From the NCBI GenBank assembly GCA_048941015.1, contig JBHLNZ010000047.1, positions 1 to 21,788 of the forward strand: 21,788 nt of DNA. Direction: 5' to 3'. Each line of letters begins with the position of its first letter. Within the stretch, counting starts at the first letter, position 1. The notes beneath the pieces were generated by a model. That model was not told the origin of the DNA. It made no database searches and saw only the letters and a program-made list of their open reading frames with translations. The DNA is from Promethearchaeota archaeon (GTDB lineage: Archaea > Asgardarchaeota > Lokiarchaeia > Sigyniarchaeales > SOKP01). Made by a program: the position numbers and the translations under genes. Below are positions 3,100 to 16,417 of the stretch, in pieces.

Positions 3100-4746
3100 T
3101 TGATGGCGAAAACAAGAACGATTATTTTAAATCTTATAATAATAGGTATAGCAATTGCTGTCATCTTGATTATCGTGGATATCACTACCAATTTTTTTGG
3201 TAATAGGGATGAGCTTCTCCGTTTTTTTAGTCCTTTCCTGGATATGGAGAGCTTTTTATCGATATTTAATATGATTTTTGGTCTATCACATATTCCTCTT
3301 TCAATTATTTTTAGTATAATTCTTATCTGGAAAAGGCATAAAATAAAAGTTTATCCATTTGTCATAATCATTTGGATTTATCCATTACTTACTTTTCTAC
3401 CTTTATTTATACCAATAATGATGGGTCCAGTTGATATCTATGAGATGTATACAACTTTCTATTCTTACTTATTTGTAAGTTTTCTTACAATACTTTTACC
3501 TGCATTAATTGTTACAATTTTAGCATTTTTATTCAAAGGAAAGAAAAAAGAAAGAAAATGGGAAAGAGTAGGAGAAATTAGTATTAGAGCACCAACAGCT
3601 ACGGTAAGTTTTCCATTAGAAAGGGAATTAATATTTATTAGTTATGCAACAGTGGATTCTAATTATTTTCAAATTCCAAAAATTACGCGAATATTGACTA
3701 GTTATCCAGAAATTGATGAAATTCTTTATTGGGAGTCAGATATGCACGATGATATTTATAGATATATGGATACCAATCTACAACGATGTAAAGTAGTACT
3801 TCTATTTTGCTCTAAAAATTCTCTTTATTCCGAAGCAGTCAAGATGGAATGGAGTTCAGCATTAAAATTAAATAAGAGGATTGTCCCTGTATTTGAAAAC
3901 CCAGATGACATACCTGCTTTATTGACAACCAAATTAGGAGTTCAATTTAATGCGAATGATCCTTATTCTTCAATTGAAGATATTTACAATATGATATTAA
4001 AGAAATTAGAAGTTGAATCAGTTAGAGAATTTACCCGATATATTATTCCAAAATGGATTAAAGCAGAGGATTTTTATCGTCAATTACCTCTTGAAAAGAC
4101 AGTTGAAGAAACCTTAAGTTTTGAGAGTGATTATCCTTCAAGTGAATTAGGCATCCATATTGGTTTAATTCTACAGAATAATAATTTTCATGTTCCAGGA
4201 CTGAAAAAAGCTCTAAAAGGAAAGAAAAAGAAAAAAAAAGAGACTTCTGAATTAACTGAGGAGTCTGAATTTATAAAATTCACTTCATTTGCGGAATTGC
4301 GAGATGATCCAGAAAATATTGCAATTTTAGTTAAAATTGAAAAGATAACGGATGATAGTAGTAACGTTTTACTTAATTTAAAAGGAAAAAGAGATTGGGT
4401 ATTAAAAGAAATCTTGAAAGATATCGATTTAAAACTAGTTGAATTAAAAAGCAAAACAGAGCTTATTCGTAATTATTCCGGAAATGTTATTTCTTTAATG
4501 AAAGATATTGATGATATCGAAAGATTTTTAAGAAGATATCTCGGTTCAAGTATTAAAAGCATTGAAGAGCTTATCAAACAATATAAGAATAAAGAAATTG
4601 ATGAGGAAGAATTTATTATTAAAGGTACTCAATCTGTTGGAAAAGATTTTATTATCGTGTTTCTAGGAAATATTTCATTAATACTGAAGGAAAAGAAACA
4701 AATCTTAGAGAGTAAACCACCTAATCAAACTCAAATTGTATTCTAA
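3100..4746 (+). CDS. Multi-pass membrane protein: about 4 N-terminal TM helices + TIR domain + C-terminal domain of unknown function
   Basis: Four hydrophobic segments in aa ~8-145, then a basic stop-transfer (KGKKKERK). The TIR starts IFISYATVD (nt 3631) and continues LLFCSKNSLYSEAVKMEW and IVPVF. Start is TTG 3100 or ATG 3103. Confidence 0.85.
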   Translation: MMAKTRTIILNLIIIGIAIAVILIIVDITTNFFGNRDELLRFFSPFLDMESFLSIFNMIFGLSHIPLSIIFSIILIWKRHKIKVYPFVIIIWIYPLLTFLPLFIPIMMGPVDIYEMYTTFYSYLFVSFLTILLPALIVTILAFLFKGKKKERKWERVGEISIRAPTATVSFPLERELIFISYATVDSNYFQIPKITRILTSYPEIDEILYWESDMHDDIYRYMDTNLQRCKVVLLFCSKNSLYSEAVKMEWSSALKLNKRIVPVFENPDDIPALLTTKLGVQFNANDPYSSIEDIYNMILKKLEVESVREFTRYIIPKWIKAEDFYRQLPLEKTVEETLSFESDYPSSELGIHIGLILQNNNFHVPGLKKALKGKKKKKKETSELTEESEFIKFTSFAELRDDPENIAILVKIEKITDDSSNVLLNLKGKRDWVLKEILKDIDLKLVELKSKTELIRNYSGNVISLMKDIDDIERFLRRYLGSSIKSIEELIKQYKNKEIDEEEFIIKGTQSVGKDFIIVFLGNISLILKEKKQILESKPPNQTQIVF

Positions 4747-4946
4747 ATTCAATTTCTTTTAATATTTTTTATAAAATATTTAATAAAAATAATAATTAAA
4801 GTTATAATTTCTCAATTTTCTTATTTCTTTTAGTTATTACATTTGTGTAAAGATTTTTAAAGATATATAACATAATCAATAATTAACAATCCAATTAATT
4901 AACTTAATTGTATAAAAAATTTTCAAGCTAAATTTGGTGCATTTCA

Positions 4947-6590
4947 TTGAAGAAGGGTAAGATATTATTTTTTAGTTTATATATTTCTGGACTTATTTTA
5001 TTACTATTTATACCCCTTATTTGGGGAACATTATTTTCATCCTCGTGGTTTTTTCATTTAGGAGATTCATTTAGCTCAGTAGCAATATCTTCTGATGGTG
5101 AATATATAATAGCTGGGGCTTTTAATAGTAGAGTATATCTTTTTGATAAAGATCGTACAAAACCACTATGGTCTTATGAAACGGGTCATGAAATAACTTC
5201 AGTAGCCATTTCTTCTAATGGTGATGATATCGTTGCTGGTAGTAGAGATCGAAAGGTTTATTTGTTCCATAGGTCGGTTTCCACGCCTATATGGAGTTAT
5301 GATACTGGAGCAGATGTGTTATCTGTTGCAATATCTTCTGATGGGAATTATATCGTATCCGGAAGTGAGAATGGCAATGTTACTCTATTTGATAAATCCA
5401 GTTCTACTCCCTTATGGAGCAATTCGACAGGATACGAAGTAAATACTTTAGTTATCTCATCTGATGGACAAAATATTGTTGCAATAGGACAGTTTTTTAC
5501 ATTCTATTTATTCAATAAGACAAATCCTATTCCTGAACTTAGTTATTCTCTAACCGATTACCCTATTTCTATAGCGATAAGCTCAGATGGAAAATCTATT
5601 GTCGCTGGAACTGCAGATGATAAAGTATATTTATTTAGCAACTCTAGTTCTACTCCTCTATGGACATATAGTGGGTACGACGAAATTCGTTCCGTGTCTA
5701 TTTCCTCAAACGGACAATATATTGCGGCGGGAGGTTTAGGTCAATATGTATATTTTTTTGAAAATTCAAGTTCCATCCCATTGTGGACCTATAGAACGTT
5801 TAGTAATGTAGAATCTGTTTCTATATCATCAAATGGAGATTATTTAGCTGCAGGTACTTTTGGCTCTGGAGAACAACAAAAATCTTATTGTTTTCATAAA
5901 TCAAGTCAATCTCCTTTATGGATTGTCCAAGGTGGAGGAAAAACTGCAATTTCCTCAAATGGAAAATACATTGCCTCGGTACCAGGCCTTAAATTATTCT
6001 TCTTTGAAGTTGAGAGCCAATTTAATCTTTCTGATTTTAATACTTATACCATGATTGTTTTGACCATTGGGGGTGTGGGATTAGTCATTTCTATAATTGT
6101 TGTTGTTGCAAGAAGGAAGAAACTAAAAGCTAGAGGCATTCGAGTATTTATCAGCCATGCTATAGATGATTTCAGTAAATATAGAATAGCAGAGATAGCT
6201 AAGTACTTAGAATCCCATCCAGAAATTAATCATGTATATTACTGCGAAGAAGACCTTACGGGAAATATAGATGACTGGATGAAAAAAACCGTTCCAAGAT
6301 GCCAACTTTTAATATTTTTCTCAACAGAAAATTCTTTAAAATCAGAAGATTGTATGAATGAGTTAAAAATAGCACGCAAGCTTAATATTCAAATTTCACC
6401 TATCTTAGGTGTTAATTTAAGATGGGAAGACTTAGGAAACTTAAACATTAATCGGGAACTCGGGCAAGAATTTGATCCTATGGAATTTGAAAAATTTAAA
6501 GAAAATATCTATAATTATATCATTAAGTTCGCACAAGATCTAGAAAAGGAAATTCTTGAGAAAAGGAAGTCTAGAAAAAATAAAACATAA
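4947..6590 (+). CDS. Receptor-like protein: N-terminal signal/anchor + 8-repeat WD40/PQQ-like beta-propeller + TM + TIR
   Basis: Eight ~41-aa repeats (SVAISSDG.YI.AG....VYLF......PLWSY). TM MIVLTIGGVGLVISIIVVVA is followed by RRKKLKAR. TIR RVFISHA...STENSLKSEDCMNEL from nt 6141. TTG start. Confidence 0.88.
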   Translation: MKKGKILFFSLYISGLILLLFIPLIWGTLFSSSWFFHLGDSFSSVAISSDGEYIIAGAFNSRVYLFDKDRTKPLWSYETGHEITSVAISSNGDDIVAGSRDRKVYLFHRSVSTPIWSYDTGADVLSVAISSDGNYIVSGSENGNVTLFDKSSSTPLWSNSTGYEVNTLVISSDGQNIVAIGQFFTFYLFNKTNPIPELSYSLTDYPISIAISSDGKSIVAGTADDKVYLFSNSSSTPLWTYSGYDEIRSVSISSNGQYIAAGGLGQYVYFFENSSSIPLWTYRTFSNVESVSISSNGDYLAAGTFGSGEQQKSYCFHKSSQSPLWIVQGGGKTAISSNGKYIASVPGLKLFFFEVESQFNLSDFNTYTMIVLTIGGVGLVISIIVVVARRKKLKARGIRVFISHAIDDFSKYRIAEIAKYLESHPEINHVYYCEEDLTGNIDDWMKKTVPRCQLLIFFSTENSLKSEDCMNELKIARKLNIQISPILGVNLRWEDLGNLNINRELGQEFDPMEFEKFKENIYNYIIKFAQDLEKEILEKRKSRKNKT

Positions 6591-6777: not shown

Positions 6778-9700
6778 ATGTTTAATAATAACCTGAAAAA
6801 AAAGTTTAATAAAAAAACATTGGCTCTCTTCTGCATTTTTTTAATGATCTATGTAGCAATGTTCTTCATAGCCTCACATAGAAATCTCTTAGATCAAAAT
6901 GGAAATTCAGATATACAAGACTTTAACTTTCCAAAGTCTAGTGCCCAATCGATTTCACCTGTTGAACTTGGTCAATATTATGATGATAGTAATTCTTCTA
7001 GAGATGTATTTATAAATGGAGACATTGCATATGTAGTAGATTTTCAAAATGGCCTAGAAATTATTAATATAAGTGATCCTGGTCATCCAACAAAATTGGG
7101 TAACTATACTACAAGTTCATGGGCCTTTAATGTTGTTGTTTCGAATAATATTGCATATGTAGCTATAGGATACGGATCATGGGATAGAAACATGGAAATA
7201 ATAAACGTTTCAGACCCAAATAACCCTGTTTTACTATCTACTGCTATAGATACCCCAATTACGTCTGGGTCAGACATTTTTGTTTCTGGTGGAATTGCTT
7301 ATATAGCAGATTATGCGGAGGGTCTTAGAATCTATAATATAAGCGATCCATCAAATCCACAATTTCTAAGTAAACTTGGTGATGCGAGCAATTATTCAGC
7401 CGGTATATATGTTTCAGGCAACATTGCTTACTTAACTGAAGTTGAAGACGGAATGGAAATCATTGATGTAAGTGATCCATTAAATCCTATTGAAATTAGT
7501 AATTTTAATGATGGAGGTAATTATTGGGATGTATTCATTTCTGGAGATTTAGCATATGTAACAGATCCATATGGAGGACTTAAGATTATTGACGTGAGTA
7601 ATCCAAAACAACCTAAAAAGCTTGGGAGTTTTTATGAGAATGATGCATCTAGAGGTATTTTTGTTGATGGAAATATTGCTTTTTTATCAGATGGAAGTCA
7701 AGGAACGAAAATAATTGATATTAGTGATCCCTATAACCCAACTAAATTAGGAAGCTATTATGATGGTGGTTCTTCACAAGCTTCTTTTGTTTCAAGAGGT
7801 TTACTTTATGTTGCTGATAGTAATGATGGATTGGAAATCATTGATATCGGATATTCTAGTGGACAATGGTTAGAGCCATCCTTAGTAGGTAAATTTGGAG
7901 ATGCATATAATAATAGTCAAAATGTAGTTGTTTCAGGAGATATTGCTTACGTTTCGGATGATTCAGATGGTTTGGAAATAATTAATGTAAGTAATCCCTA
8001 TAATCCTTCACTATTAGGTAAATTTGGAGATGGTTATAATAATACTCTGAGTGCATTCATTTCTGGAGATTTAGCATATGTCGCAGATGAATACGACGGT
8101 TTAGAGATAATTAACATTACTGATCCTACAAATCCTTATGAGATAGGATATTTTGATGATAGTGGAATAGTTACTAATGTATTCGTTTCAGGAGGTTTAG
8201 CTTATTTAACAGACGCGATTGATGGTTTAGAGATAGTTAATATTACCGATCCCACAAATCCTACAGAATTGAGTGAACTAGGGACTATAGGATCATGGTG
8301 TATTGATATTAATGTCTATGGCAATATTGCTTTTGTAGCAAGTGAGGGCAGTGGTATAGAGATAGTTGATGTGAGTGATCCGAGCAAACCTGTTGAAATA
8401 GGAAATTTTTCATACGGTGTAAGTGGTTGGGGTAGTGGTATTCATATTTCAAATGATATTGCATATTTTTCGGATGTAGCAGATGGTATAGAAATAGTAG
8501 ATGTCAAAAACTTGACTAATCCTTCTTTATTAGGAATATTTGGTGATGATCATAACGAATCTAGAGATATTTGCGTTTTTCGGGATATTGCTTTTGTTGC
8601 TGATGATACAGATGGTTTAGAAATAATTGATGTTAGTGATCCTAGCAATCCTATTGAAATAGGGGAATTTAATGATGGTGGAATAACAAAAGGAGTATAT
8701 TTTTCAAGAAATTTAGTATATGTAGCTGATAGAACTCATGGATTAGAGATTATCGATATTGGATTAGATAATGATGATGATGGATTGACAAACGTAGGAG
8801 AATATTTTATCCATTCCACTAATTTAACAAACCCAGATACAGATGGCGATAATATTAATGATTATGATGAAATAAACACCTATTCTACTGATCCTAATGA
8901 TGCTGATAGTGATGATGATAATTTAGAAGATGGTTTAGAATTAACTTATAATACAGATCCTAATGATGGAGACAGTGATGATGATGGACTACTTGATGGT
9001 GACGAAATTAATATTTATTCTACTGATCCGAATGATGATGATCATGACGATGATGGTATTTTTGATGGAGAAGAAACAATAGCAGGCTTAGATGGATATA
9101 TAACCGATCCAACAGATAATGATTGCGACGACGATGGATTGTTAGATGGAGCAGAGACAATAACATATCTAACTAATCCATTAAATGCAGATTCTGACTA
9201 TGACGATTTACCTGATGGTTGGGAAGTCCAATATTCACTCAATCCAAATTCACCTAATAGAAATGAAGACCCAGATGTAGATGGATTAACAAATTATGAA
9301 GAATTTCAGCATGGAACGGATCCCAGATTAGAAGATACCGATGGAGATGGATATTCAGATGGCGCTGAAGTAGCTGCTGGTACAGATCCTCTGGATCCTA
9401 ATAACTTTCCATTCAGTATTTGGGATTTTTTTAGAAGATTTGGATTATTGATAGGAATTGCTGTTGTCTCTGTAGCAATTGTAGCTGCGGTTGCTATTCG
9501 ACGGAAATCAATCCAAGCTAAAAAGCTCCGAGTTTTTATAAGCCATGCTGTTGATGATTTTAGAAGTTATAGAATAGCTGATATTGCTAAATTTCTTGAA
9601 TCACAAAAAGAAATCTCTCATGTATATTACTGTGAAGAAGATTTAGTAGGAAATATTGATGACTGGATGAAGAAAACCGTACCTCGTTGTCAACTCTTAA

Positions 9701-9981
9701 TTTTCTTTTCGACAGATAAATCATTAAATTCAAATGATTGTATGAATGAAATAAATCTTGCTCGAAAACATGGTTTACAGATTACTCCTGTCTTAGGAAT
9801 CAATTTAAGATGGGAAGACTTAGAAAAGTTAAATGTCAATAGGGAACTTGGAAAGGAATTCGATCCGATGCAATTTGATAAATTATGTAAGGAATTATAT
9901 GCTTACGCTTTGAAGTTCAAAGAAGATTTAGAAAAAGAAGCTCAAGAAAAAAAAACCGATAAAAAAAGACGGAAAAAATAA
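6778..9981 (+). CDS. Receptor-like protein: signal/anchor + 14 LVIVD repeats + 9 TSP3-like Ca-binding repeats + TM + TIR
   Basis: 14 copies of V.VSG.IAYVAD...GLEII(D/N)VSDP..P and 9 copies of D.D.DG(L)..G.E. TM FGLLIGIAVVSVAIVAAVAI followed by RRK. TIR RVFISHA...SNDCMNEI from nt 9529. Confidence 0.9.
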   Translation: MFNNNLKKKFNKKTLALFCIFLMIYVAMFFIASHRNLLDQNGNSDIQDFNFPKSSAQSISPVELGQYYDDSNSSRDVFINGDIAYVVDFQNGLEIINISDPGHPTKLGNYTTSSWAFNVVVSNNIAYVAIGYGSWDRNMEIINVSDPNNPVLLSTAIDTPITSGSDIFVSGGIAYIADYAEGLRIYNISDPSNPQFLSKLGDASNYSAGIYVSGNIAYLTEVEDGMEIIDVSDPLNPIEISNFNDGGNYWDVFISGDLAYVTDPYGGLKIIDVSNPKQPKKLGSFYENDASRGIFVDGNIAFLSDGSQGTKIIDISDPYNPTKLGSYYDGGSSQASFVSRGLLYVADSNDGLEIIDIGYSSGQWLEPSLVGKFGDAYNNSQNVVVSGDIAYVSDDSDGLEIINVSNPYNPSLLGKFGDGYNNTLSAFISGDLAYVADEYDGLEIINITDPTNPYEIGYFDDSGIVTNVFVSGGLAYLTDAIDGLEIVNITDPTNPTELSELGTIGSWCIDINVYGNIAFVASEGSGIEIVDVSDPSKPVEIGNFSYGVSGWGSGIHISNDIAYFSDVADGIEIVDVKNLTNPSLLGIFGDDHNESRDICVFRDIAFVADDTDGLEIIDVSDPSNPIEIGEFNDGGITKGVYFSRNLVYVADRTHGLEIIDIGLDNDDDGLTNVGEYFIHSTNLTNPDTDGDNINDYDEINTYSTDPNDADSDDDNLEDGLELTYNTDPNDGDSDDDGLLDGDEINIYSTDPNDDDHDDDGIFDGEETIAGLDGYITDPTDNDCDDDGLLDGAETITYLTNPLNADSDYDDLPDGWEVQYSLNPNSPNRNEDPDVDGLTNYEEFQHGTDPRLEDTDGDGYSDGAEVAAGTDPLDPNNFPFSIWDFFRRFGLLIGIAVVSVAIVAAVAIRRKSIQAKKLRVFISHAVDDFRSYRIADIAKFLESQKEISHVYYCEEDLVGNIDDWMKKTVPRCQLLIFFSTDKSLNSNDCMNEINLARKHGLQITPVLGINLRWEDLEKLNVNRELGKEFDPMQFDKLCKELYAYALKFKEDLEKEAQEKKTDKKRRKK
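6990..8763 (+). repeat. LVIVD protein-repeat array (2 x 7 blades)
   Basis: 14 repeats counted by hand. Repeats 7 and 14 share the distinctive ending SR(G/N)L.YVAD...GLEIIDIG. Boundaries are approximate. Confidence 0.8.
8767..9400 (+). repeat. Acidic TSP3-like calcium-binding repeat stalk
   Basis: DNDDDGLTNVGE, DTDGDNINDYDE, DSDDDNLEDGLE, DSDDDGLLDGDE, DHDDDGIFDGEE, DCDDDGLLDGAE, DSDYDDLPDGWE, DPDVDGLTNYEE, DTDGDGYSDGAE. Confidence 0.85.
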
Positions 9982-10061: not shown

Positions 10062-11792
10062 TTATAAGACGCCTGCATCTTTTAGAATTTGTTTGTGATC
10101 AAAAGCTAAATCCATGGTTTTAACTTTTTCAATGGGAACTGCTTCGGCAACCTTTGCATCATCTCCGCCTGCTAATAAGGAGAGATCTTTAACTAACCTG
10201 CATTTAAAAGCAGTTGATACAATTCTTCCTCTCGGGTCTCGACCTTTTTGATCATAGGTACCTATTTTTCTCACTACTTCAACAGCAAGATTAGTTTCTT
10301 CTCTTACTTCTCTCACAATCGCCTGTTCCGCATTTTCGTTATATTTTATGAAACCACCTGGTAATGCATACTTACCCTTATAAGGATGATATTTTCTCTT
10401 AATTAATATTATATTTCTATTATCATCTTCTATAACAGCATCGACAGTATATCCTTTCTCTTCCACTTTTGCTCTAGCTCTATGAAACATAAAATAAGTT
10501 AACGTACCAATAAACATCAATCCAATGACCGTTGTTGCTATTAAATACGCCATAACCTCAAATGTGGTCTCTGAAAGATTTGTACCTATTACTAATACAT
10601 CGAAAAAGTCTTTTACAATTCCAGCACTTAAGATGATATTCACTAGATATAATATCCTTGTAGTAACTTTTTGATTCTTCTCATTTCTTTGAAGATAAAA
10701 TTCTTGCATAGAGTCGTATAATATTTTGAATTTCTTATTTACTCTCTCTATAATTGTTTCAATGCGATATATCTTTATAAGGTGTGTTAATACTCTTGTG
10801 TAGTGCTCGCGGGGGTTCCAATCTAACTCACTGTAAATAAGACTCATTTTAGTTTGAATCATTCCCCGTAAAAATCTAAGATTATTCATCTTATGTTCTA
10901 TGGTTTCCAAACTCATAAAAACATCTGAATAGCGTTTCATGAATAAGATATCTAATGAATTGTTAATCGTCATAAGCGCAAAAAGGACTGCACGCATTTT
11001 TGGTGTGATATCTAATACATGTTCTTTTATATAGAGAAATTCTGTCTTATAATTTTGTTCTGCCATGTAGATAAATCCAGAATTTCTTTGGATATAATGA
11101 AGTTCAGAAAGACGATTAGAGAAATTATTTTTGATTCTTCTTTCAAAAAGTTCGTCTGTATAATCACCCCATTGTCCTGCATATAATCGTGTCCAATATC
11201 CAAGTATTTTTTTATATTTTTCTATATTTTTTGTATCCCATTGGACTTCTATAGGGCTAACCTTACTTGATACTACAAAAACATATATTGGACTCTCAGT
11301 ATCAAGAAGTAAAAACTCATTTTCTCTTCTATTACTGTATTCTTTAAGCATGTCAAGAACAATAATTGGTATTTCTTGGATTAAGTCCGGTGTAATCCTT
11401 TCTTTTTTATATGGTTCATTTTTAAAGTATTCAATTTCAAATTTAAAATATCCTAGCGTATTATATATCAAATCACGATAATCTTCAGTATAAGCCCTAT
11501 TTTCGTCAGTATAAGGAAAATTTTGGAAGAAAGGCTCCCAGTCACATTCTATAGATATCGACTTAGCCATTTCTCTTAAAATTACCTTTTTCTCTTCAGC
11601 ATGTGGATATTTCTCTAAAAAAGTGAAGGCTTTTCCTAGATCAACATCATTATGATTCTTCAATTTTTCTAAAAGGAATGTTTCTATTTCTTCCGCCTTA
11701 GTTTCTCCAATAAATTCATTTGTATTTATGAAAGCACTGACATACCAAAATTCTTTTCCATAAATAAAACGTAAATTTTCTTCCATTTTCAA
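10062..11792 (-). CDS. Membrane protein with a large soluble N-terminal domain, long helix, 2 TM helices (CorA/RMD1-like) and a C-terminal Nudix (ADP-ribose pyrophosphatase-like) domain
   Basis: Nudix box GFIKYNENAEQAIVREVREETNL matches GX5EX7REUXEE. RDPR, GDDA and LAFDH motifs are present. Two hydrophobic helices precede the Nudix. Start is TTG 11792 or ATG 11786. The CorA-like assignment is an inference from architecture. Confidence 0.8.
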   Translation of the reverse strand: MKMEENLRFIYGKEFWYVSAFINTNEFIGETKAEEIETFLLEKLKNHNDVDLGKAFTFLEKYPHAEEKKVILREMAKSISIECDWEPFFQNFPYTDENRAYTEDYRDLIYNTLGYFKFEIEYFKNEPYKKERITPDLIQEIPIIVLDMLKEYSNRRENEFLLLDTESPIYVFVVSSKVSPIEVQWDTKNIEKYKKILGYWTRLYAGQWGDYTDELFERRIKNNFSNRLSELHYIQRNSGFIYMAEQNYKTEFLYIKEHVLDITPKMRAVLFALMTINNSLDILFMKRYSDVFMSLETIEHKMNNLRFLRGMIQTKMSLIYSELDWNPREHYTRVLTHLIKIYRIETIIERVNKKFKILYDSMQEFYLQRNEKNQKVTTRILYLVNIILSAGIVKDFFDVLVIGTNLSETTFEVMAYLIATTVIGLMFIGTLTYFMFHRARAKVEEKGYTVDAVIEDDNRNIILIKRKYHPYKGKYALPGGFIKYNENAEQAIVREVREETNLAVEVVRKIGTYDQKGRDPRGRIVSTAFKCRLVKDLSLLAGGDDAKVAEAVPIEKVKTMDLAFDHKQILKDAGVL

Positions 11793-12016: not shown

Positions 12017-12466
12017 ATGAGTGAAAGTAAAGTAAAATCATCTAATAAAATATTAAATCTCTTGTTAATAATTTTGGGACTTCTTTTTATCTTTAGAGCT
12101 GTTTTAGACTTTCTATTATGGGCGGGATTAATTGTACCCGAGTTTTTAGAAGATTTTAGCACTGATTTGGGATCCGCAGCGGCATTATCGATTTTTGGAA
12201 GTCAAGGTTTAATCTCCATAGCGTTAGGCTTCTGGAGTATTGTAGCGGGTATTGGAATGTTTAAAGAAGAAGAATGGGCAATGGGTCAAGCACTCGTTAT
12301 TCTAAGTATAATGGTAATTTCAGGTATCTCCCCAATAATAAGTTGGATCACGAATCCTACAGCATTCGATATACAATACTGGCCAAATTATATCATTATA
12401 GTAGCCTTTCTGGTCGGTTTAATCGGATTTATCTGGTTGCTAGTCACCCGTAAGAGATATGATTAA
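12017..12466 (+). CDS. Small 4-TM membrane protein of unknown function
   Basis: 149 aa with four hydrophobic helices. A TTTATATA box lies upstream at about 11944-11951. Confidence 0.8.
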   Translation: MSESKVKSSNKILNLLLIILGLLFIFRAVLDFLLWAGLIVPEFLEDFSTDLGSAAALSIFGSQGLISIALGFWSIVAGIGMFKEEEWAMGQALVILSIMVISGISPIISWITNPTAFDIQYWPNYIIIVAFLVGLIGFIWLLVTRKRYD

Positions 12467-12647
12467 ACTAATGAAATCCCCAAATTTTTAATTCTTTTTA
12501 TTTTAATATTTAGATCAGGCTTTAACGTATTATTATATTCCTAAATTTATTTCTACTTTTAAATTTTGTAAACTTTATACAAAATGGAAGCAAATTTTCT
12601 CTTTATTGGGCTTTTAAAGATTATACCATAGATTAAATAATTCTATC

Positions 12648-12690
12648 CAAAATATTTATATACCGACTCTACAAAATATTTATATACCGA
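12648..12690 (+). promoter_or_regulatory. Tandem 19-bp perfect direct repeat, each copy containing an archaeal-type TATA box
   Basis: CAAAATATTTATATACCGA at 12648-12666 and 12672-12690, with TTTATATA at 12655 and 12679. Ends 61 bp before ATG 12752. Confidence 0.6.
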
Positions 12691-12751
12691 ATATAGAATA
12701 TTTGGTAATTAAATTTAGCAAATTCAATAAACCTATTAAAGGTGTTTTTCC

Positions 12752-15700
12752 ATGGAAATGGAATTACCAGAGAAAAATTTAAAGAAAAGTTTTGAATATC
12801 CCCAGCATTTGTATCCCAAAAGGAAAGGTCTCGCAAAAGCATTTCACATGACTCAGAGTTTTGGACATACTAGTGATGTAACTTCAGTTGTGATCTCTCA
12901 TAAAAAAGATTATATTATTAGTGGGTCTAAAGATAAAACTTTAAAAGTTTGGGACTTTACAACCGGAAAATTATTGAGAACAATAGAGGCTCATAATTCT
13001 CCAATATTTTCAGTAGCAATTTCGATGGATGATGCTTATGTCTTTACATGCTCTTCAGATCACTTAGTAAAAGTTTGGGGATTAAGAGCAGGGCATCTTA
13101 TTAACGAATTTAAAGAACACACTGATATAGTTACATCATTAAAAGTGACTCCTGATGGAAAAAGTCTCATTAGCGGTTCTAAAGATAAATATGTAATCGT
13201 ATGGGACATCTTAAATGCAAAACCTATTCATAAATTTCAACATAAGAGCGGTATATCTTCAATTGCCATAAATAAAGATGGAAGTATTTTAATTTGCGGT
13301 GATGATGATGGAGAAATTACAATATGGGATTTGAATAAAAACAAATTTCTCCGTACAATTAAAGGACATTCAAGTGAAATAACTTCATTATCGATTTCAC
13401 CTGACACAAAATACTTTGCCAGCGGATCTGATGACAAAACTGTAAGACTCTGGGATCTTTCAAAGGGAAAACCTATCTATATTTTCAACGATCATTCTGA
13501 AGCGGTTCGAACTGTAGCTATATCTCCACTGGGGAATATGATAGTTAGTGGCTCTGATGACAAAGCAATTAAATTATGGGATTTAAAAACCGGTAACATT
13601 CTTAGAACGTTAAAAGGCTATACGGAAAGAGTCTTATCTATAGCATTTTCTCCCGACGGTAGATACATCGCAACAGGTTCATCAGATCATAATGTTATGA
13701 TTTGGGAGATAATGGAAGGAAAATTGGAAAATACTATAAATGCCCATACCAATGATGTAAATGTAGTTTCTATTTCTCCAAAGGGAAATTTTGTCGCATC
13801 TGGTTCTAGCGATAATTCTATAAAATTATGGGAGATTAAAAATCAAAATCTAGTAAGGAGCTTTACTGGACATAAGAAACCAGTTAATTCAATCGCATTT
13901 TCTCCTGATGAGAACTATATTATTAGCAGTTCCTTAGATAAAGATGTTATTATTTGGGATATTAGAAATCCGGTACCACTAATAAAAATAAATAAGATAG
14001 GAGCTAATGTAAATTCAGTCGTGTTTACCCCCACCACGAATCAAATAATGGTGGGCTTAAGTAATAATTACATAAAAATGTGGGATCTACAATCTAAAGA
14101 ATTTATTTGGGAGTCAAAAGAACATAAAGGTGCTATAACGTCAATAAAATTCTCTCCAAATGGGAGATATTTTGTGACTGGATCAGAAGATAAACACATA
14201 AAAATATGGGATTTCACATCAAGAGATGTAATTAAAGATTTAAGTGGTCATAAAGGAAAAATATTATCTCTTGATATCTCACCAAATGGTGCAAAAATTT
14301 CTAGTACTTCTGATGATAAAACAGTAAAAGTTTGGGATTTCTATACCGGTGAATTAATCACTAGTCTTGAAAACCATACTGATATAGTTTCAAGTGTTTC
14401 ATATTCTCCAATAGGAAATTGTTTCATCAGCGGTTCTGATGATAAAACAATTAAAGTATGGGATAATTCAAGATATGAATTAATTCAGTCCTTTGAGGGT
14501 CACCAAAAAGCAGTATCTTCTATTGCCATAACTCCTGATGGAAAGTATGCTATAAGTGGATCTCAGGATGGAACACTAAAATTTTGGTCTCTTACATTTG
14601 GTGGTGTATTTAAAAATATAAAAGGGCATTCGGAGAGTGTAAATTCAGTAGCAGTCTCATCTGACAAACGATATGCTGTTAGCGGATTATCTAATAAATC
14701 CCTAATAGTTTGGGATCTCTTTAATGGTAATCTAATTAAAACCCTAAAAGGCCATGAAGATATAATCAGTTCAGTTGCATTTTCACCTGGAGGAAAATTC
14801 GTGGTTAGCGCATCATATGATAATACCTTAAAAATTTGGGAAATTAAAAGTGGTGAAACATTATGGAATTTAAATGGTCACGACAAAGCTGTTACCTCTG
14901 TAGCTGCTTCTCCCGATAAAAATTATATTGTTAGCGGCTCAAAAGATAATACTGTTATAATATGGGAACCTTCTACTGGTAAATTAATAAAAAAGCTGAA
15001 AGATCATTCAAGTGCTGTGACATCAATTGATATTTCTCCAAACGGAGATCTTATTGTGAGTGGTTCTGAGGATAACTCTATCAATATTTGGAATATGAAA
15101 AAAGGGAAACTTCTTCGTACTCTGAAAGGTCATACTGACGTTGTTACATCAGTTGTATTTTCTCCTGATGGAGAATTTATTGCAAGTGGCTCAAGAGATC
15201 AAACTGTAAAATTATGGAAAGTCAATACCGGTGAACTAGATTATTCTTTTGAAAGAATAAATAGCCCAATTAAGACAGTAACGTTTTCATCTGATGGTTC
15301 ATATATAGCTTGCGGTACTGAAGATAATTTTGTGAGAGCATGGGACTTTATTGAGAAGTATCAAAGTTCATATTATTATTTGTCAAAAGTTAATTCAGCA
15401 AAATTCATTCCAAATACACACCAAATTATTGCTGGTTATAATTCGGGTGATGTTTTAATATGGGATTTATTAATGGAAGAACAAGAAGAACTTTTAAAAG
15501 AACTTCGAGGAAAATTATCTGATGTTGAAGATTTGATTGATAAAAATAATTATTCAGAAGCTATAGAAAAATTGAATTACGTTTTAGAGACAGCAAATAT
15601 GTTTAACTTTGAAGAGATAAGATCAATTGCCTTCGAAAAACTAAAAAATTTAAGAGATCCTGAAGAAACTTCAAGAAATATTAGAAGTATTTTGGAATTT

Positions 15701-16417
15701 GAATTTAAAAATCAAAGAAAAATCACTAAAGCAGAAATGGTAAATCAACTTAATATTGAAATTTCCGAAACAGATTATTATACAAATTTATTATCAAGTA
15801 CCATAAATTATGAGGCTTCTGAGACCCCAGATTTAGAAAGGTTAGGAACGAAAATATTAAAAAAATTCATTAATCCTTCATTGTATGATTTAATAATTCA
15901 ATTAGAGTATGATTATAAGCTAGCCTTTAAAATTGGTAAATTTCTATTAGATAGAGGCTTTATAAAACAATTTAGAAATTATCCTTTAGTTGGAGAAAAA
16001 GTAGAAACCGGGAAAAAACTAGAAGATTTAATTATTTTTATAAGTTATGCAACAGTCGATGCAGAAGTATTTAAGGTTAAGGACTTAGCATCAAGATTAG
16101 AGTCATTTAAGGAAATTAAAAAGGTGTTATATTGGCAAGAAGATATGAAAGATAATATTATCAAATATATGAGTGATAATCTTGGAAGATGTAGTGCAAT
16201 GATATTACTTTGCTCAGAAAATGCTCTAGATTCAACTCCCGTAGATAAAGAGTGGACTGCTGCAGATATGATGGGTAAACCTATCATCCCCGTATTTCTT
16301 AACCCAGATCATATCCCTCCGCTTCTTAAATCAAGACTAGGGCTTGAATATGATTTGGTAGATTTTGAGAGAAATGTAGTACAACTTCATAATTTGATTT
16401 TAAAGAAGTGTGTATAA
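12752..16417 (+). CDS. Soluble WD40-repeat protein (21 repeats) with helical linker and C-terminal TIR domain
   Basis: 21 GH...WD-type repeats counted by hand (nt ~12860-15466). No hydrophobic helix. TIR IFISYATVD (nt 16034)...CSENALDSTPVDKEW...PIIPVF. Confidence 0.92.
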   Translation: MEMELPEKNLKKSFEYPQHLYPKRKGLAKAFHMTQSFGHTSDVTSVVISHKKDYIISGSKDKTLKVWDFTTGKLLRTIEAHNSPIFSVAISMDDAYVFTCSSDHLVKVWGLRAGHLINEFKEHTDIVTSLKVTPDGKSLISGSKDKYVIVWDILNAKPIHKFQHKSGISSIAINKDGSILICGDDDGEITIWDLNKNKFLRTIKGHSSEITSLSISPDTKYFASGSDDKTVRLWDLSKGKPIYIFNDHSEAVRTVAISPLGNMIVSGSDDKAIKLWDLKTGNILRTLKGYTERVLSIAFSPDGRYIATGSSDHNVMIWEIMEGKLENTINAHTNDVNVVSISPKGNFVASGSSDNSIKLWEIKNQNLVRSFTGHKKPVNSIAFSPDENYIISSSLDKDVIIWDIRNPVPLIKINKIGANVNSVVFTPTTNQIMVGLSNNYIKMWDLQSKEFIWESKEHKGAITSIKFSPNGRYFVTGSEDKHIKIWDFTSRDVIKDLSGHKGKILSLDISPNGAKISSTSDDKTVKVWDFYTGELITSLENHTDIVSSVSYSPIGNCFISGSDDKTIKVWDNSRYELIQSFEGHQKAVSSIAITPDGKYAISGSQDGTLKFWSLTFGGVFKNIKGHSESVNSVAVSSDKRYAVSGLSNKSLIVWDLFNGNLIKTLKGHEDIISSVAFSPGGKFVVSASYDNTLKIWEIKSGETLWNLNGHDKAVTSVAASPDKNYIVSGSKDNTVIIWEPSTGKLIKKLKDHSSAVTSIDISPNGDLIVSGSEDNSINIWNMKKGKLLRTLKGHTDVVTSVVFSPDGEFIASGSRDQTVKLWKVNTGELDYSFERINSPIKTVTFSSDGSYIACGTEDNFVRAWDFIEKYQSSYYYLSKVNSAKFIPNTHQIIAGYNSGDVLIWDLLMEEQEELLKELRGKLSDVEDLIDKNNYSEAIEKLNYVLETANMFNFEEIRSIAFEKLKNLRDPEETSRNIRSILEFEFKNQRKITKAEMVNQLNIEISETDYYTNLLSSTINYEASETPDLERLGTKILKKFINPSLYDLIIQLEYDYKLAFKIGKFLLDRGFIKQFRNYPLVGEKVETGKKLEDLIIFISYATVDAEVFKVKDLASRLESFKEIKKVLYWQEDMKDNIIKYMSDNLGRCSAMILLCSENALDSTPVDKEWTAADMMGKPIIPVFLNPDHIPPLLKSRLGLEYDLVDFERNVVQLHNLILKKCV

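Follow-up and report, generated by a model that had tools for sequence, protein, structure and literature searches.

The stretch of DNA analysed in the present study, called the window below, comprises 21,788 nucleotides (positions 1 to 21,788 of the forward strand of contig JBHLNZ010000047.1, assembly GCA_048941015.1 of a Promethearchaeota archaeon) and has a G+C content of about 30%. In this window, four genes encoding TIR domains and one gene encoding a Nudix domain are grouped within 13 kb. The gene of interest is an open reading frame (ORF) of 1067 codons, which starts with ATG and is directly preceded by an AT-rich spacer of 187 bp; its product, designated P0001, combines two LVIVD β-propellers, a TSP3-type stalk, a single transmembrane (TM) helix and a terminal TIR domain (Table 1).

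Pfam searches clearly indicated the presence of LVIVD repeats (E 7e-85, 278.6 bits with a cut-off of 20.2, in 13 stretches) and of TSP3_bac (E 5e-12, 46 bits with a cut-off of 25). The TIR_2 score was 27.4 bits by hmmscan, slightly below the 28-bit cut-off, and 32.4 bits in a six-frame search of the genome; among 31 single-pass relatives, described below, TIR_2 was found in 26 at E ≤ 1e-3. The NCBIfam matches of P0001 were choice-of-anchor B, CglD and MtsD. A motif scan found 13 strict blade motifs of the GxEIIDV type and one degenerate motif, followed by nine calcium-type motifs D-x-D-x-D-G..D..E at residues 664-864, in a stalk that contains 24.7% aspartate.

The AlphaFold model of full-length P0001, built with the 31 relatives (mean pLDDT 84.5), begins with a helix at residues 12-36, followed by 56 strands that make up 14 four-stranded blades arranged in two seven-bladed propellers, with a low-confidence linker (residues 357-367) separating the propellers. 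The stalk (661-880) contains short helices, residues 881-913 form one long helix, and the remainder up to residue 1060 forms a β-α domain from residue 917 onwards. The preliminary description of this DNA, made by reading the letters, had listed an N-terminal hydrophobic segment, 14 LVIVD repeats, nine acidic repeats, a TM helix followed by RRK and a terminal TIR, and every item of that list was borne out by Pfam, the motif scan, hydropathy or the model.

Table 1. The P0001 gene, its parts and the neighbouring TIR and Nudix genes (positions in the window)
Feature	Position	Strand	Basis
LVIVD-TSP3-TM-TIR gene, P0001 (whole)	6778..9981	+	ORF list, Pfam, translation
Basic stretch and hydrophobic segment, residues 1-33; signal peptide or N-terminal anchor	6778..6876	+	hydropathy, model
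First seven-bladed LVIVD β-propeller, residues 62-356	6961..7845	+	28 strands/7 blades in model, Pfam, blade motifs
Second seven-bladed LVIVD β-propeller, residues 368-660	7879..8757	+	28 strands/7 blades in model, Foldseek
TSP3-type calcium-binding stalk, residues 661-880, nine motifs	8758..9417	+	motif scan, Pfam
TM helix, residues 881-913 (hydrophobic core 889-907), then RRKSIQAKK	9418..9516	+	hydropathy, K/R counts, model
Cytoplasmic TIR with long C-terminal helix, residues 917-1060 (predicted)	9526..9957	+	TIR_2, model, Foldseek
GAA codon of Glu991, putative catalytic glutamate	9748..9750	+	invariance, alignment, codon read
4TM-TIR protein, 548 aa, second TIR subtype	3100..4746	+	translation, hydropathy
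WD40/PQQ-like propeller-TM-TIR protein, 547 aa, paralogous TM-TIR cassette	4947..6590	+	translation, Pfam, TIR clade
CorA-like two-pass membrane protein with C-terminal Nudix, 576 aa, convergent	10062..11792	-	Pfam NUDIX E 2e-19
Soluble WD40(x~20)-TIR protein, 1221 aa	12752..16417	+	Pfam, translation

The distribution of lysine and arginine (K/R) around the two hydrophobic segments is asymmetric: five precede and one follows the segment 14-32, while two precede and six, including those of RRK, follow the segment 889-907, and the K/R-rich flank lies on the TIR side in every homologue examined. Sequons of the type N-x-S/T are distributed accordingly along the protein: 15 were counted in total, 14 of them in the LVIVD part, where composition shuffles would predict 7.4 (p about 0.01), while the cytoplasmic part is free of them. 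The heads of homologues are enriched as well (31 sequons with 13 expected in P0012, 22 with 6 expected in P0015), with none or few in the cytoplasmic parts, and the soluble WD40-TIR protein of the same locus is depleted (3 with 11.7 expected). On the basis of the K/R bias, of where the sequons lie and of the surface location known for LVIVD and TSP3 proteins, P0001 is predicted to have its N-terminus and its TIR within the cell and its head outside; the propeller repeats and the TIR, whose placement on one side of the membrane would have contradicted the preliminary description, are thus predicted on opposite sides. Taken alone, this architecture and topology can be held with high confidence.

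Each of the sequon types named in the preliminary description occurs in P0001. About half of these sequons arise from the repeat's own D to N replacement within the motif N-[IV]-[ST]-D-P, and since one repeated motif accounts for so many, they are not independent events and weigh less as evidence of glycosylation. The surface proteins of cultured Hodarchaeales have been reported to be N-glycosylated, and the glycosylated ectodomain proposed earlier is plausible for P0001, with sequon counts as its sole support.

TIR domain and the head-TM-TIR family

A separate model of residues 875-1067 (pLDDT 84) displayed a β-α pattern, and a Foldseek search with it retrieved SARM1, Brucella BtpA, MyD88, TLR15, the SPARTA TIR-APAZ protein, SpbK and PdTIR (E 3e-5 to 1e-3, probability 1.00). 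This pattern and these matches agree with the flavodoxin-like fold that defines the TIR superfamily, in which five parallel strands alternate with helices. At the sequence level, the single TIR sequence of P0001 had no match in the PDB, and the matches of a wider family profile were dominated by leucine-rich repeats (LRRs) contributed by soluble relatives; a profile restricted to the TIR domains of the family gave weak matches to Caenorhabditis elegans TIR-1/SARM1, RPS4 and Cat1 (E 0.003-0.02). In these alignments, Glu991 of P0001 corresponds to the glutamate of 'WVHKE' in TIR-1/SARM1, 'CVRELE' in RPS4 and 'CWDELE' in Cat1, which is the established catalytic residue of these proteins. Glu991 is invariant in the 31 single-pass relatives and in 71 soluble LRR-TIR relatives, and the conservation and alignments indicate that the P0001 TIR is of the enzyme type, with Glu991 as the putative catalytic residue.

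The preliminary description had presented P0001 as a receptor analogous to Toll-like receptors (TLRs). The ectodomain-TM-TIR layout agrees with this comparison, as predicted from the K/R bias, the sequons and the model; the mechanism does not, since an enzyme-type TIR with an invariant glutamate places P0001 nearer to the TIRs of SARM1, plants and Thoeris than to the non-enzymatic TIRs of TLRs. A PADLOC search with P0001 gave a weak match to ThsB (E 7e-4, 17 bits), and the Rst_2TM_1TM_TIR protein models were not matched by P0001, P0002 or P0003. ThsB-like clusters were also the neighbours found in the ESM Atlas, where the score of 0.82 is at the level of chance.

Searches with the TM-TIR module among 1.84 billion representative proteins revealed 511 relatives at E ≤ 1e-3, including 67 at E ≤ 1e-30. 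Among the best 150 are about 30 proteins of the single-pass head-TM-TIR kind, about 10 with a multipass TM-TIR architecture and about 100 that are soluble, some of the last carrying TIRs in tandem. The heads of the 31 single-pass relatives contain LVIVD (17 proteins), TSP3 (17), SBBP (5) and WD40-like propellers (2), the others being β-helices or unknown repeats. All soluble members scanned (71/71) are LRR-TIR proteins without a membrane helix; an LRR, a TM helix and a TIR joined in one protein were not found in this TIR subtype, though all three occur. This soluble Asgard LRR-TIR family (P0019, P0036-P0159, alignment A5) is large and seemingly undescribed too. Two to four tandem TIR domains and no other recognisable domain were observed in the relatives P0023, P0102, P0164 and P0038.

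A maximum-likelihood tree computed for the TIR domains by a quick search, with SH-aLRT support only, contains a clade (support 99) of 13 single-pass and 10 multipass proteins, in which LVIVD, SBBP, WD40-like and β-helix heads are mixed, and a second clade (98%) of 12 single-pass forms. The architecture labels require 7 changes on the tree, compared with 39.7 in shuffles. The mixture of heads in the first clade shows that different heads have been swapped onto a conserved TM-TIR cassette.

None of the head-TM-TIR relatives carries a database name. Archaeal head-TM-TIR proteins were not the subject of any paper retrieved by full-text searching, nor did the literature searches yield a prokaryotic TIR described as coupled to a sensor outside the cell. 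In a survey of Asgard defence systems, TIR is mentioned solely as part of two DefenseFinder system names, 'Rst2TM TIR-NLR' and '2TM 1TM TIR'. An architecture already common and characterised would have spoken against the earlier description; it does recur, with LVIVD and TSP3 each in 17 of 31 relatives, but it is nameless in databases and absent from the searchable papers. The head-TM-TIR proteins apparently represent an undescribed Asgard family with swappable heads.

Within the phylum, 104 of the 400 genomes encode this TIR subtype, often more than once; it is present in 87/134 genomes of the family of the source organism, 11/19 of the rest of the order and 4/5 of the rest of the class, and in one elsewhere. 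All related loci in species-representative genomes belong to Asgard archaea, and the syntenic relative of the same genus (L001) is labelled Candidatus Hodarchaeota; the genome encoding P0001 is a Hodarchaeota-type Asgard metagenome-assembled genome (MAG). It is 3.59 Mb in size and 95% complete and contains 12 TIR_2 matches, mostly on membrane proteins, several of them 7TM-TIR. Several multipass (about 7TM) proteins with C-terminal TIRs of both subtypes are encoded on contigs C87, C58, C134, C109 and C92 of this genome, and one further protein has its TIR at the N-terminus.

Divergence and origin of the LVIVD head

A true orthologue of P0001 was found in one of 134 other genomes of the family, that of L001, where the head shows 66% identity within a frame of 1074 aa; among genomes of the same genus the count is 1/40. 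The comparison with this orthologue by parts (Table 2) indicates purifying selection on the gene, and the head is its fast-diverging part. At the DNA level, the LVIVD part is a local minimum of identity (60-76%), compared with 93-95% for the TM-TIR part, 90-97% for the neighbouring TIR genes and 77-89% for the housekeeping flanks. The raised dS of the head is more suggestive of old alleles that have been exchanged than of rapid change.

Table 2. Identity and rates of non-synonymous (dN) and synonymous (dS) substitution between P0001 and its L001 orthologue
Part	Identity	dN	dS
Whole protein	73.5%	0.17	0.89
LVIVD head	66%	0.24	1.26
TSP3 stalk	87%	0.07	0.63
Membrane helix	97%	0.013	0.27
TIR	97%	0.017	0.33

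Within the blades of five homologues, loops 1-2 and 3-4 have identities of 0.42 and 0.33, while loops 2-3 and 4-1 have identities of 0.65 and 0.62. In a β-meander, alternate loops share a face, and the variation is therefore concentrated on one face of the propellers. A Foldseek search with the head ranked BT4673 and BT4663 highest, two sensor ectodomains built of tandem propellers (E about 1e-20 to 1e-18); since many unrelated double propellers score nearly as well, this match is to be read as structural analogy and not as kinship.

The next best heads, with identities of 52-56%, occur in proteins 923 and 925 aa in length. These align to residues 8-916 of P0001, a span that runs from the signal through the two propellers and the stalk to the TM helix, and then end with a short basic tail without a TIR. 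Because the closest head homologues end after the membrane helix, P0001 is a common surface scaffold to which a TIR was added, and since such TIR-less homologues exist in related genomes, the head has a function of its own. These complete surface proteins give some ground for regarding P0001 as a structural surface protein or adhesin, in which the LVIVD-TSP3-TM part would do its work outside and the TIR tail would anchor or cluster the protein without enzymatic signalling; LVIVD and TSP3 are typical of surface and adhesion proteins, as the NCBIfam names illustrate, and the TIRs of animal receptors do act as scaffolds. A pure scaffold, however, would not need the catalytic glutamate, which is invariant in more than 100 relatives; the same TIR subtype also occurs on soluble LRR and 7TM proteins, the TIR is far more conserved than the head, and a Nudix protein of the ADP-ribose type is repeatedly encoded nearby. 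An adhesin is therefore considered unlikely.

The same TIR-less look-alikes could be read in another way, with the head mimicking a TIR-less cell-surface protein to which viruses attach, so that P0001 would be a receptor decoy or tethered suicide effector: its TIR would be a cell-killing NADase kept inactive by the membrane tether, and virus docking, membrane damage or proteolytic release would unleash NAD+ depletion and cause abortive infection, with no need of a messenger or a Nudix reader. The local peak of divergence in the head and the patchiness of the gene, with its single true orthologue among 40 genomes of the genus, would fit such a role, and a precedent is provided by TirC of Dictyostelium, a membrane-tethered TIR NADase that has been reported to turn toxic when released from its helix. 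The locus, on the other hand, shows no viral or defence-island context, nothing points to a protease site, and the look-alikes reside in other genomes, while P0001 is the only tandem LVIVD protein of the source genome at E ≤ 1e-30. This explanation seems doubtful; it overlaps with the sensor model proposed below, differing from it mainly in the output.

Neighbouring TIR genes and the Nudix protein

The 547-aa propeller-TM-TIR protein encoded upstream of P0001 has its TM helix at residues 369-387, followed by RRKKLKAR, and its TIR belongs to the same clade as that of P0001. Concerted evolution of the two TM-TIR cassettes of the window was considered and rejected, the TM-TIR module of P0001 being 95% identical to that of its orthologue and 61% identical to that of this neighbouring paralogue. 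A comparison of the 4TM-TIR and propeller-TM-TIR genes (window positions 3100-6590) with L001 gave dS values of 0.25-0.33, while those of the flanking housekeeping genes are 0.64-0.94; the low values suggest either recent exchange between lineages or strong constraint at the DNA level.

The 576-aa Nudix protein, encoded convergently with P0001, has its TM helices at residues 384-431 and is a candidate reader or remover of a TIR product. It occurs in 141 of 154 genomes of the order, and its neighbourhood with TIR genes recurs: a TIR domain is encoded within 1.5 kb of the Nudix gene at 16 of 26 loci of close orthologues and at 0 of 4 loci of a paralogue with 50% identity, counts that include kin and are not independent. 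The Nudix proteins form two paralogue groups, with about 65-100% and about 50% identity, the genes of which are adjacent and convergent in two genomes. Over 14 loci of about 20 kb each, the TIR genes beside the Nudix gene vary, including LVIVD, propeller and 4TM forms, a 680-aa head-TM-TIR protein, 1404- and 1424-aa single-pass proteins and WD40-TIR, or are absent. The two giant single-pass proteins are encoded at positions 16182-20396 of L002 and 10957-15231 of L050 (1404 and 1424 aa, respectively), and the head of the former, the one scanned with Pfam, combines a NosD/β-helix with a periplasmic-binding-protein (ANF-receptor-like) domain.

The L001 locus has the same gene order as the window, but lacks the WD40-TIR gene and a 149-aa ORF that precedes it here; this ORF, located between the Nudix and WD40-TIR genes (window positions 12017-16417 were compared), had no family match, and the L001 contig carries a WD40-TIR gene at a distance of about 54 kb from this place. 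A divergent head-TM-TIR gene pair was observed in an Asgard MAG that is more distantly related (L055, 11825-14761, minus strand), two genes from a gene for a 978-aa TPR-SIR2_2 protein, another NAD+-consuming module.

The near-constant presence of the Nudix partner in the order would suit housekeeping signalling better than an accessory defence gene, and the locus lies amid genes of sugar and amino-acid transport (GH2, MFS, amino-acid permease). Together with the glycan-sensing Bacteroides ectodomains of hybrid two-component systems found as best structural matches of the head, this leads to a further possibility, namely that P0001 senses cell-cell contact or environmental glycans, in syntrophic partner recognition or nutrient perception, and that the TIR product is a physiological second messenger and not part of immunity. 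The ligand of such a sensor is only hypothetical, and patchy, fast-turnover TIR genes around a constant partner resemble a conflict system; this reading is regarded as very unlikely.

Possible mode of action and comparison with known systems

TIR domains connect bacterial, plant and animal immunity, and prokaryotic TIRs are known as cytoplasmic sensors or effectors. The features described above are consistent with a different placement, in which P0001 would be a bitopic outside-in sensor and one member of a variable repertoire. The two LVIVD propellers, carried on a TSP3 stalk stiffened by calcium, would face outward, with one helix spanning the membrane; a multivalent ligand, perhaps a virus particle, the surface of another cell or a polysaccharide, would bind the variable face of the propellers and alter the spacing or oligomeric state of the receptors in the plane of the membrane. 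The TIRs, located about ten residues below the membrane, could then assemble and cleave NAD+, as induced assembly has precedents in SARM1, plant TIRs and bacterial TIR filaments, and tandem propellers as sensor heads have theirs in BT4663 and BT4673. The output would consist either in a cleavage product, ADP-ribose or one of its cyclic isomers, or in NAD+ loss itself; the protein most likely to read or remove the product would be the neighbouring CorA-like Nudix membrane protein. Such a sensor might serve defence or, alternatively, cell-cell or environmental sensing. Taken as a whole, this reading is held with moderate confidence.

Several observations weigh against it. The gene is flanked by housekeeping genes (GH2, MFS, OsmC, amino-acid permease, CCG/Fe-S, radical SAM, PfkB-like) and not by a defence island, and PADLOC recognised no known defence system for P0001, P0002 and P0003, with the ThsB match as its sole hit. 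The existence of the head without a TIR in related genomes means that the protein may be mainly an adhesin or wall component, and positive selection on the head was not shown, the overall dN/dS being 0.19. The tryptophan found at position -4 from the catalytic glutamate in SARM1 and plant TIRs (RPS4) is an aspartate in P0001, and the activity or product may therefore differ. Four of the 14 Nudix loci have no TIR gene within about 9 kb. A Nudix partner beside the distant LVIVD-TIR loci (L055, L056) was sought and rejected, the neighbouring 588- and 591-aa proteins being unrelated, and because these loci have no Nudix gene, the TIR-Nudix link holds only within the order. Finally, the topology was placed by rules (K/R bias, sequons) and not by a dedicated predictor, the source genome is a MAG with about 5% contamination, and all members of the family are known from sequence alone.

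A broader proposal, that Hodarchaeota-type Asgard archaea possess a germline repertoire of pattern-recognition-like receptors, with swappable extracellular heads and cytoplasmic LRR heads on one enzyme-type TIR subtype and an NAD+-derived product read at the membrane by the CorA-like Nudix protein, can be put forward only tentatively. If true, the repertoire and its Nudix readout would constitute the first prokaryotic pathway of outside-in TIR signalling, and either an independent invention of Toll-like receptor architecture or a precursor logic for it; Hodarchaeota-type Asgard archaea are among the closest known relatives of eukaryotes. The family would show that the receptor layout of TLRs can be assembled from prokaryotic parts, that extracellular events can drive TIR enzymes and that Asgard archaea of this kind invest in diversifying their surface-sensing repertoire. 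A TIR of 150 residues with a clear putative catalytic residue and a conserved candidate partner would make simple test objects.

The TIR-less Asgard LVIVD-TSP3-TM proteins share 52-56% identity with P0001 from the N-terminus onwards, as far as the membrane helix reaches, after which they end in a short basic tail while P0001 continues into the TIR of 150 residues. BT4663 and BT4673 of the Bacteroides hybrid two-component systems likewise expose tandem seven-bladed propellers as the outward head of a membrane sensor, but they signal through a histidine kinase and a response regulator and have neither LVIVD repeats nor a TSP3 stalk.

With Toll/TLR and interleukin-1 (IL-1) receptors, P0001 shares a large repeat ectodomain, one TM helix and a juxtamembrane cytoplasmic TIR (predicted in P0001), as well as membership of a germline family with varied heads. 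The head itself is different, consisting of LVIVD and TSP3 in P0001 and of LRR or immunoglobulin (Ig) domains in the animal receptors; the TIR of P0001 retains the catalytic glutamate, whereas the TIRs of TLRs have been described as non-enzymatic scaffolds recruiting adaptors, and no adaptor of the MyD88 type is evident for P0001. The PDB profile matches of its TIR are weak and point to SARM1/TIR-1, RPS4 and Cat1. The likeness to TLRs lies in the layout only, and by its head and its enzyme-type TIR P0001 is not a member of the TLR family. SARM1/TIR-1 and the plant TIR NADases represent the closest solved TIR folds, with a catalytic glutamate aligning with Glu991, and their activity needs induced oligomerisation, the mechanism proposed here for P0001; they differ in being soluble and regulated by ARM-SAM or nucleotide-binding LRR modules, their sequence similarity to P0001 is marginal, and they carry the tryptophan mentioned above where P0001 has an aspartate.

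Thoeris systems resemble the locus in placing several differing TIR proteins beside one constant partner gene, in the catalytic glutamate of the TIR (ThsB being the protein weakly matched by P0001) and in a partner domain that could bind a product derived from ADP-ribose. ThsB, however, is small and cytoplasmic, without an ectodomain or membrane helix, while the P0001 locus lies outside a defence island and its partner, a CorA-like two-pass Nudix protein, is not a described Thoeris effector; 'Nudix' is absent from a systematic survey of Thoeris. In its logic, the P0001 locus is closest to Thoeris, from which it is set apart by sensors that span the membrane and by a partner not described before.

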